NCBI RefSeq assembly: GCF_024502345.1
Contig: NZ_JALDNN010000001.1
Length of the DNA stretch: 64,000 nucleotides
Source of the DNA: Escherichia coli
GTDB lineage: Bacteria > Pseudomonadota > Gammaproteobacteria > Enterobacterales > Enterobacteriaceae
Direction: 5' to 3' (one strand)
In this document: piece after piece, positions 41,115 to 43,418 of the stretch
Numbering within the stretch: position 1 is the stretch's first letter
How the letters are laid out: each line of letters begins with the position of its first letter
The notes under the pieces: generated by a model
Databases searched by the model: none
Told to the model about the DNA's origin: nothing
The model's input: the letters and a program-made list of their open reading frames with translations, nothing else
Position numbers and translations under genes: made by a program

Positions 41115-43418
41115 TTATATCGCTTCTGAACCCCTGAATGTTTTTCGCCATACGGACGGCGATACGCCAAATTTTGCGATAAACTTTTCCCGTAAAGATG
41201 TTGCGGAACTAAAACCAACCAGCTCAGATACCTTCTGTACAGAGTGGGCTGTAGATTCCAGTAATACCTGCGCTTCTCTCAGACGCTCCGTTGTTAACCA
41301 GTCAACCAGTGTCATGCCCGTCGACTGTCGGAAGCGGCGTGTAAAGGTTCGTCGGCTCATGCTAACGACTTCACAAAGTTCATCCAGCGTCCAGCGTCTG
41401 GCCAGGTCCTGGCGCAGCGTTTCAACCAGCAGAATTATCTGGCGATCCTTTGTTGCAGATGGAAAAGGCATCTGAATATACTGAGCCTGTCCCCCGTCCC
41501 GATGAGGCGGGATCACCATTCGCCTTGCTATCTGATTGGCAATATTGCTCCCGTACAACTCCCTGACCAGATACAGACAGCAGTCCATACCCGCACCTGT
41601 ACCGGCAGAAGTAATAATATTATCGTCAGCTACATAGAGCGCATTCATATCCAGGTGGGTATTCGGAAACCGTGACTGAAAATCACTCTCATACAACCAG
41701 TGTGTCGACGCGTTTCTTGCATCCAGTAGTCCTGAATAGGCCAGAGCATAGGCACCAAGGCACAAACCCACAATGGTGGCATTATGCTGTGCAGCTTCCC
41801 GGAGTGCTTCCGTTAACTGTGGCTCCGGTACAATGTCAGGCGATGGCCAGAAAGGAACTATAACCATGTCAGCAGTACGTAACACCGATAAGTCATTGAT
41901 GTAGCCCCCTGAAACACCGGACAGTAGCTGTATCTCCAGATAAGAGATAGGCTTGAATATATGTCTAACACTAACGCCAATTTTGAGATGACCGGGATCC
42001 TGTTAGGGCAAGAAGTCCGTAAACGTAAAACTCCTCAGGAGAAGATCGCCATTATCCAGCAGACGATGGAGCCGGGTATGAATGTCTCCCATGTCGCCCG
42101 CCTGCATGGTATCCAGCCCAGCCTGCTGTTTAAGTGGAAGAAGCAATATCAGGAAGGCAGCCTCACCGCCGTTGCGGCTGGAGAGGAAGTCGTTCCTGCT
42201 TCTGAGCTTACTGCTGCTCTGAAGCAGGTCCGGGAGCTTCAGCGCCTTCTGGGCAAGAAAACGATGGAAGTTGAGATCCTGAAAGAAGCCGTGGAGTACG
42301 GTCAGTCGCGAAAATGGATAGCGCACGCGCCCTTGTTGCCAAAGGACGGGGAATAGCCATGGTCAGCCGGACCATGGGCGTGTCGCGTGCGCAACTGTCA
42401 CTGCGGATTAACCGTTCTGCCGACTGGCAGGACAGGCGCTGTAACCGGCGTAATGAAGAAGCAGACGCAGAAATACTGTCGGCTATCCTCAACATTATCA
42501 GCGATATGCCGAGTTATGGTTATCGACGCGTGTGGGGCATCCTGCGCAAGCAACGTCGCACAGAGGGACAGCCACCTGTGAATGCCAAACGGCTTTACAG
42601 GATAATGAGCGAGCATAACCTGTTGTTGTTGCATCACAAACCAGAGCGACCGAAGCGTGAACATAAGGGCAAGATAGCGGTGGCAGAAAGCGATATGCGC
42701 TGGTGTTCAGATGGCTTCGAGTTCGGCTGCGACAACGGCGAAAAACTGCGGGTAACGTTCGCGCTGGACTGCTGCGACCGTGAGGCCATAGACTGGGCAG
42801 CAAGCACGGGAGGCTATGACAGTTCGACCGTGCAGGATGTGATGCTGAGGTCGGTGGAAAAGCGCTTCGGCGACAGGTTGCCCGACACAGCGGTGCAGTG
42901 GCTGACGGATAACGGTTCAGCGTATACCGCGTATGAAACGCGGAGGTTCGCGAGAGAGCTGAATCTGGAGCCCTGCACAACAGCGGTGAGCAGCCCGCAG
43001 AGTAATGGCATGGCCGAACGGTTCGTGAAAACGATGAAAGAAGACTATATCGCGTTCATGCCAAAACCGGATGTGAGAACAGCACTGCGAAACCTTGCAG
43101 TAGCGTTCACGCATTACAATGAAAACCACCCGCACAGCGCGCTGGGATATCACTCCCCGAGGGAATACCGGCGGCAGCGGACATCGTTAACTTAAGATAC
43201 AAAAGCTGTTCGGAGATGGAGGGTCAAGATCAACACCGATAAGTCATATTCCGGTGTAATATGCATACCATGTGAGGTTTTTATAGTCTTTCCCTGCACG
43301 GAGCATAAAACAACGTTAAATAATGAATGGTCCGGGATAATATCTGCAAAAATTGCCAGGGGTACGGAGAGATGAAATGCACTGATATCATCGGTTATCA
43401 AAATGGCTATCTTTTTCA
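41115..43418 (-). pseudogene. GlxA-type regulator (DJ-1/PfpI domain plus AraC HTH), interrupted by an IS2-group element
   Basis: N-terminal part 43234..43418 (MKKIAILITDD...PEYDLSVL), C-terminal part 41115..41896 (...DLSVLRTADMVIVPFW... AraC-type HTH); frame continuous once the IS is removed. Confidence 0.75.
41897..43232 (+). mobile_element. IS3-family, IS2-group insertion sequence
   Basis: orfA 41961..42356 and orfB 42314..43195 resemble recalled IS2 InsC/InsD at roughly 60 percent; ends TGATG...GATCA; flanked by a 15-bp direct repeat acaccgataagtcat. Confidence 0.8.

Follow-up and report, generated by a model that had tools for sequence, protein, structure and literature searches.

An insertion sequence (IS) of the IS2 group interrupts a regulator gene in the Escherichia coli DNA studied here, and the direct repeats at its two ends are 15 bp long. 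The earlier note on this stretch of 64 kb (the window, taken at its whole length) had rightly remarked that such a length lies beyond the 3-5 bp quoted for the IS3 family. The question raised by the locus is whether the long repeat is an accident of a single insertion or a regular product of the element. The comparisons presented below make it very probable that this is a simple insertion of ISEcl1 into a plasmid- or transposon-borne FtrA/GlxA-like regulator gene, with 15 bp being the normal target-site duplication (TSD) of a clade that makes duplications of 15 or 16 bp.

The insertion site was analysed together with its uninterrupted alleles. The repeat ACACCGATAAGTCAT occurs twice in the window, both times on the plus strand, and abuts the IS on each side, in accordance with the description in the earlier note (Table 1). 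Deletion of the IS and one repeat in silico regained the expected GlxA-type frame, a minus-strand frame of 317 aa running through the junction (...PEYDLSVLRTADMVIVPFW...). The restored 800-bp query matched 34 plasmids, each time as a single ungapped piece of 800 bp with 98.3-99.9% identity. In pSE11-2 of E. coli SE11 (NC_011413, L001) the 15-mer is present once and both flanks are identical to those of the window. As the uninterrupted alleles contain the 15-mer once and not twice, it is a true TSD of exactly 15 bp which is absent as a pair from the intact gene. The window repeat is therefore a genuine 15-bp target-site duplication. The same insertion was found neither in PLSDB nor in complete E. 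coli genomes.

Table 1. Features of the IS, its target gene and the surrounding transposon in the window
Feature	Position	Strand	Basis or remark
ISEcl1 (IS3 family, IS2 group), 1336 bp, ends TGATGTAG...CAAGATCA	41897..43232	+	100% identity to copies
TSD, left copy (ACACCGATAAGTCAT, 15 bp)	41882..41896	.	single copy in L001 empty site
TSD, right copy (15 bp)	43233..43247	.	repeat count in window and L001 empty site
Left imperfect terminal inverted repeat (TGATGTAGCCCCCTGAAACACCGGACAG...)	41897..41940	+	end alignment; IS2-type homology
Right imperfect terminal inverted repeat (reverse complement TGATCTTGACCCTCCATCTCCGAACAG...)	43190..43232	-	end alignment
orfA, 131 aa	41961..42356	+	NF006928 'IS2 repressor TnpA', 201 bits, cut-off 229
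orfB, 293 aa, DDE catalytic domain	42314..43195	+	overlaps orfA, -1 frame
Interrupted regulator, 5' fragment (MKKIAILITDD...PEYDLSVL)	43233..43419	-	ORF and restored frame
Interrupted regulator, 3' fragment (...DLSVLRTADMVIVPFW... to stop)	41115..41896	-	ORF and restored frame
Tn3-family structure	38351..47788	.	38-bp terminal inverted repeats 38351-38388 / 47751-47788, 33/38 matching
MBL-fold hydrolase	40268-41044		inside Tn3-family structure
Ester cyclase	43439-43843		inside Tn3-family structure
tnpR (serine recombinase)	44036-44686		inside Tn3-family structure
tnpA	44771-47755		TnpA 1209.9 bits on NF033527, cut-off 500
Inverted remnant of tnpA 3' end	39745-40067		inside Tn3-family structure
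IS110-family gene			inside Tn3-family structure

The element is, judging by identical copies annotated under that name, ISEcl1, a known IS of the IS3 family and the IS2 group. Copies which are 100% identical over exactly positions 1-1336 were found on plasmids and chromosomes of Citrobacter, Escherichia, Salmonella, Klebsiella and Enterobacter, those in OV141395 are annotated as ISEcl1, and 1336 bp is the length given for ISEcl1 (PMC5001619). These independent copies also indicate that the true ends of the IS do not lie further out. The element begins with TGATGTAGCCCCCTGAA… and finishes with …GGAGGGTCAAGATCA; its terminal inverted repeats are imperfect, and the termini (TGATGTAG… / …CAAGATCA) fit the TG…CA form of the IS3 family. 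OrfB exceeded the cut-off of 160 bits of the NCBIfam IS3-family transposase model (NF033516, 199 bits). The best NCBIfam subfamily matches of OrfA and OrfB were IS2 TnpA and IS2 TnpB, both under the curated cut-offs (416 bits against 597 for OrfB on NF006918, 'IS2 transposase TnpB'). These matches and the OrfB tree described below, in which the clade is nested among IS2-type elements, bear out the IS2-group assignment made in the earlier note. The identical copies are recorded in RefSeq as a frameshifted IS3-family transposase with a 'programmed frameshift'; its start is placed there at the second ATG (window 41988), whereas an upstream ATG at 41961 already opens the reading frame. In ISEcl1 AAGAAAACG takes the place of the A6G motif which IS2 has at the conserved LLGKKTM position. 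When the IS was searched against Rfam, neither a frameshift element nor any other RNA element was matched at E<=0.1.

The restored 317-aa protein carries an N-terminal DJ-1/PfpI domain and a C-terminal AraC helix-turn-helix. Its best NCBIfam match is FtrA (NF006902), with which it aligns end to end at 309.8 bits, below the equivalog cut-off of 425; the DJ-1 and AraC-type NCBIfam models are matched as well, and the intact allele is annotated in pSE11-2 as WP_000716854.1 (317 aa). The NCBIfam results are thus in agreement with the proposal that the interrupted gene encodes a GlxA-type regulator, here a DJ-1/AraC protein of GlxA/FtrA-like type. As in pSE11-2, the gene of an MBL-fold hydrolase lies on one side of it and that of a SnoaL-like ester cyclase on the other. 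The earlier wording of the gene as cargo is reasonable, since the regulator lies within a Tn3-family structure that has 38-bp terminal repeats at its two ends. No 5-bp duplication was seen flanking this structure, and IS110-family elements complicate its left end. The tnpR-tnpA module is widespread alone and adjoins the ester-cyclase and regulator genes in only three PLSDB plasmids.

Two further observations were made on the surrounding transposon. A 323-nt inverted repeat (39745-40067 against 47435-47757, 81% complementary) represents a second, diverged tnpA 3' end, situated immediately left of the MBL-hydrolase, regulator and ester-cyclase genes. This suggests an older or nested Tn3-family end with the hydrolase, regulator and cyclase genes as passengers. 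On the minus strand, positions 37205-39662 contain two adjacent IS110-family transposase genes encoding 354 and 340 aa, and the two elements share the terminal sequence …AGGGGAAGTCCCTTCCATTCGTTAAG (38291-38316 and 39725-39750). One of them abuts the inverted tnpA remnant and the other lies just outside the intact 38-bp repeat at 38351-38388; the placement looks like a putative case of IS4321/IS5075-type targeting of Tn21-type terminal repeats.

The duplication length was determined for other insertions of ISEcl1, of its 90-99% identical relatives and of ISEc48. Exact TSDs were 15 or 16 bp in 27 of 27 independent insertions, the window included, with 12 of 15 bp and 15 of 16 bp; a duplication of 5 bp or of about 25 bp was not observed in any of them. 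Among 12 independent contexts of ISEcl1 copies with 98-100% identity, three had 15 bp (L084, L085, L089), seven had 16 bp (L082, L086, L087, L088, L093, L094, L095) and two had none. The relatives with 90-95% nucleotide identity, hosted by Yersinia, Pantoea, Enterobacter, Leclercia and Sodalis endolongispinus, contributed four duplications of 15 bp (L005, L009, L021, L035) and five of 16 bp (L003, L006, L030, L037, L092); decayed repeats of the same length were also present (L016, L027, L041), and many copies, mostly in Sodalis, had none. ISEc48, with 78% nucleotide and 77% OrfB identity, showed 15 bp in four and 16 bp in three of seven independent E. coli insertions and left none without a duplication. 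The possibility that 16 bp is a chance extension of 15 bp was considered and rejected on the ground that the ends are fixed by identical copies. Because the ends are fixed in this way and the repeats abut opposite sides of the IS, the lengths are exact, and both 15 and 16 are real. Duplications of 15/16 bp are the rule in ISEcl1 and its clade.

These counts exclude the copies that have no duplication (L002, L083, L091, L096 and many Sodalis copies). Such copies make up about half of those surveyed and come mostly from the degenerate Sodalis genome; they are attributed to IS-IS recombination, which was shown directly for three pairs only, and to sequence decay. Candidatus Sodalis endolongispinus (NZ_JAFJYC010000001.1) carries about 40 ISEcl1-like copies of ~91% nucleotide identity on one 2.7-Mb contig (L007-L045 and L061), many of them internally deleted and most of them without a duplication of their own. 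Three duplications in this genome are split between different copies (L013/L028, L032/L031 and L040/L038), from which it follows that later IS-IS recombination separated them. The split duplications are direct evidence for IS-mediated rearrangement in the symbiont genome. In L083 (NZ_CP026578.2, 88258-90193) an identical ISEcl1 stands beside a truncated RepA gene without a flanking duplication, an arrangement common to many Salmonella and E. coli plasmids; it suggests an adjacent deletion or recombination which has since spread clonally. In L096 (NZ_CP022125.1) ISEcl1 directly abuts an IS2-type left end (CTAGACTGGCCCCCTGAATCTCCAG), and in L091 (NZ_CP063901.1) an 86%-identical relative adjoins an inverted ISEcl1-type end, again without duplication in both cases. 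These two loci are nested or juxtaposed IS2-group elements.

The IS2-type relatives with 61-70% OrfB identity were used as outgroups. The TSD was exactly 5 bp in 16 cases and longer in none; 14 of these copies were scored by script and two (L051 and L067) by eye. The elements were hosted by Aeromonas, Klebsiella, Enterobacter, Serratia, Lonsdalea, Buttiauxella, Symbiopectobacterium, Burkholderia and Pseudomonas. For such distant relatives the expected end regions were read and motif-anchored scoring was applied, as an ungapped scan for TG…CA and inverted repeats was too noisy. The termini of ISEcl1, ISEc48 and the IS2-type elements align column for column, and because of this homology the difference between 5 and 15/16 bp is not an artefact of where the ends were drawn. 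The neighbour-joining tree built from OrfB placed ISEc48 together with the ISEcl1 group in one clade nested among 5-bp lineages. The long-duplication clade is monophyletic, and its nested position implies that the length changed once, from 5 to 15/16 bp, at a point between 70% and 77% identity to the ISEcl1 OrfB. The 5-bp hallmark of the IS2 group is replaced in the ISEcl1/ISEc48 clade by 15 bp in the window and 15/16 bp over the 27 exact cases, a duplication about one helical turn longer than in the sister lineages and fixed within the clade.

The choice of target was examined on 21 reconstructed sites. A sequence logo revealed no convincing consensus in or around these targets, and the GC content was 43% both inside the duplications and in the flanks. 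The 15/16 rule spans Escherichia, Klebsiella, Citrobacter, Enterobacter, Leclercia, Yersinia, Pantoea and Sodalis, and IS2-type elements with 5-bp duplications occur in the same genera (Klebsiella L062, Enterobacter L064). The duplication length tracks the transposase and not the host or the site.

The earlier note had offered a staggered-cut anomaly or a secondary event as the cause of the repeat, and the clade counts lend support to neither. A single aberrant cut by an element that normally duplicates 5 bp like IS2 would accord with the group-level tables, which give the IS2 group, ISEcl1 included, a direct repeat of 5 bp (PMC10425158 Table 8, PMC10045372); however, all 27 exact duplications of the clade being 15 or 16 bp and none 5 bp, this explanation is extremely unlikely. 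A later event could have acted in two ways, either by recombination, through the IS, of two insertions that had the same orientation and lay about 10 bp from each other in sister molecules, which would leave a hybrid with an apparent repeat of 15 bp, or by a local duplication that existed beforehand. Flank-reshuffling IS-IS recombination is indeed known for the ISEcl1-like element in Sodalis, but it would need to give the identical outcome at every independent site, always of 15-16 bp, and at the window locus the 15-mer is single in intact alleles and both flanks are otherwise colinear with the empty site. The probability of such a secondary origin is negligible.

The ends might also have been assigned wrongly, in which case the element would include about 10 bp of what is counted as repeat and the duplication would really be about 5 bp. 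Apart from the prior expectation of 5 bp nothing speaks for this, and it can practically be dismissed: the 15/16-bp flanks are wholly different among copies, the 1336-bp body is identical with matches stopping at its ends, and the termini can be superimposed column by column on those of the IS2-type elements, around which the duplications are 5 bp long. It is very unlikely that the length is imposed by the target or the host and not by the transposase, for instance by insertion into a particular motif of 15-16 bp or by bending through a host protein. Host bending proteins influence other transposition systems; against such an influence here stand the 21 targets with neither a consensus nor a difference in GC content from their flanks, the constancy of the 15/16 rule across eight genera from Escherichia to Sodalis, the presence of 5-bp IS2-type elements in shared genera, and the fact that the trait follows the transposase phylogeny.

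The regular 15/16-bp duplication can be fitted into the known transposition pathway. Transposition in the IS3 family proceeds by copy-out-paste-in through a circle with abutted ends and is carried out by the OrfAB frameshift product. By analogy with the family, the OrfAB frameshift transposase would copy ISEcl1 out as a circle, and its two 3'-OH ends would be joined to the two target strands. The attacked phosphates would lie 15-16 bp apart (5' stagger) in the ISEcl1 clade and 5 bp apart in IS2, and repair of the two single-stranded gaps would leave 15-16 bp duplicated. The extra ~10.5 bp (10-11 bp) would correspond to one turn of B-DNA, so that the distance between the phosphates would grow by about 35 A with both still on one face of the helix. 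Such an increment would point to catalytic subunits that are spaced or arranged differently, or to a different bending of the target, and not to lost precision. The options considered for IS481EU, IS481 and IS1202 are the same, namely subunit spacing, the choice of acting subunits or another path of the target (PMC10045372). The circle pathway, this geometry and the responsible protein changes are what we infer for ISEcl1. In a shotgun study no circle junctions of ISEcl1 were detected, with only 2 copies and 1 transposition read (PMC5001619).

Residues that may set the stagger were looked for in OrfB by comparison of 7 long-class with 17 short-class sequences, and the differences are correlations. 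Small class-specific indels (+2 aa near 48-50, +1 near 104 and -2 near 111) lie in the N-terminal part of OrfB, ahead of its first catalytic Asp, and S226, R236, E243 and N271 are fixed substitutions of the long class. R236 is the residue after the catalytic Glu and is Ser in the 5-bp class; E243, for which the 5-bp class has Arg, adjoins the conserved Lys at +7 from that Glu. By correlation only, these indels and substitutions are candidate determinants of the duplication length.

There is nothing unusual in the way this known IS inserted, and the clade-level property of duplication length may be under-reported. The direct repeat listed for ISEcl1 is the group value of 5 (PMC10425158 Table 8), and no statement of 15-16 bp for ISEcl1 or ISEc48 was found in the literature searched; individual ISfinder entries may record it. 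Annotation which expects 3-5-bp repeats at IS3-family elements will miss or misread insertions of ISEcl1 and ISEc48, both common on clinical plasmids. Full-length copies of these two elements are contained in about 1,560 plasmid records and about 430 E. coli genomes. In L093 (NZ_CP147976.1, p926_mcr8) ISEcl1 with the 16-bp duplication TGACACGCCTGCTTAT lies directly upstream of mcr-8.2, between this gene and the start of a response-regulator (copR-like) gene. The arrangement of ISEcl1 upstream of mcr-8.2 is much cited in the colistin-resistance literature. As the duplication in L093 marks a simple 16-bp-TSD insertion, it indicates an insertion into the mcr-8 locus and is not evidence of ISEcl1 mobilising mcr-8.

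A wider reading is that a monophyletic sub-clade of the IS2 group (ISEcl1, ISEc48 and their relatives from Enterobacterales and Sodalis) went over from 5 to 15-16 bp, a step of exactly one helical turn, and thereby extends the 'quantised duplication length' known from the sister families IS481 and IS1202 into the IS3 family, for which the literature searched contains no description of it. We put this forward tentatively and regard it as nearly, though not quite, as probable as its contrary. If it is true, the ISEcl1/ISEc48 and IS2-type pair would be unusually tractable for finding what sets the strand-transfer spacing, the transposases being 70% / 77% identical to the ISEcl1 OrfB and the ends superimposable. 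The published classes spaced by ~10 bp belong to distant lineages, whereas the ISEcl1 switch would lie between close relatives with homologous ends. Chimeras in which a few indels or residues are swapped could locate the stagger determinant of DDE transposases and integrases.

Compared with IS2, ISEcl1 is alike in its length of about 1.33 kb, its orfA/orfB organisation with a -1 frameshift and its homologous termini (…GCCCCCTGAA… left, …AGGGnCAAnnnCA right), and presumably also in the copy-out-paste-in pathway; the IS2-type relatives share the DDE transposase, with an OrfB identity of 61-70%. The two differ in that the IS2-type elements duplicate 5 bp (16 cases here) and ISEcl1/ISEc48 15-16 bp, that ISEcl1 ends in TG…CA on both sides whereas IS2-type left ends start with TA, and that small OrfB indels upstream of the catalytic core are accompanied by fixed substitutions beside the catalytic Glu.

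IS481 and the eukaryotic IS481EU, whose transposases are related to those of IS3, make duplications of about 4-6, 15-16 or 24-25 bp (PMC10045372). The authors noted the ~10-bp spacing and suggested alternative subunit use, alternative multimers or target looping; the same paper sets these families against a 'conserved' IS3 family, with 5 bp for the IS2 subgroup (PMC10045372). Several classes are possible within one IS481EU family, whereas the ISEcl1 clade shows only 15/16 bp. In the IS1202 family the subgroups ISAba32, ISTde1 and IS1202 have duplications of 5-6, 15-17 and 27-28 bp, respectively; these classes are linked to clades and to group-specific transposase indels, and copies lacking repeats were put down to recombination between copies (bioRxiv 10.1101/2022.12.17.520857). 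The IS1202 family resembles the ISEcl1 clade in having discrete duplication classes about one helical turn apart as a property of clades. It is unlike ISEcl1 in being a distantly related family with a single transposase ORF, and in the ISEcl1 case a ~26-bp class was not seen and the classes are far less diverged, being set apart between 70% and 77% OrfB identity to ISEcl1.
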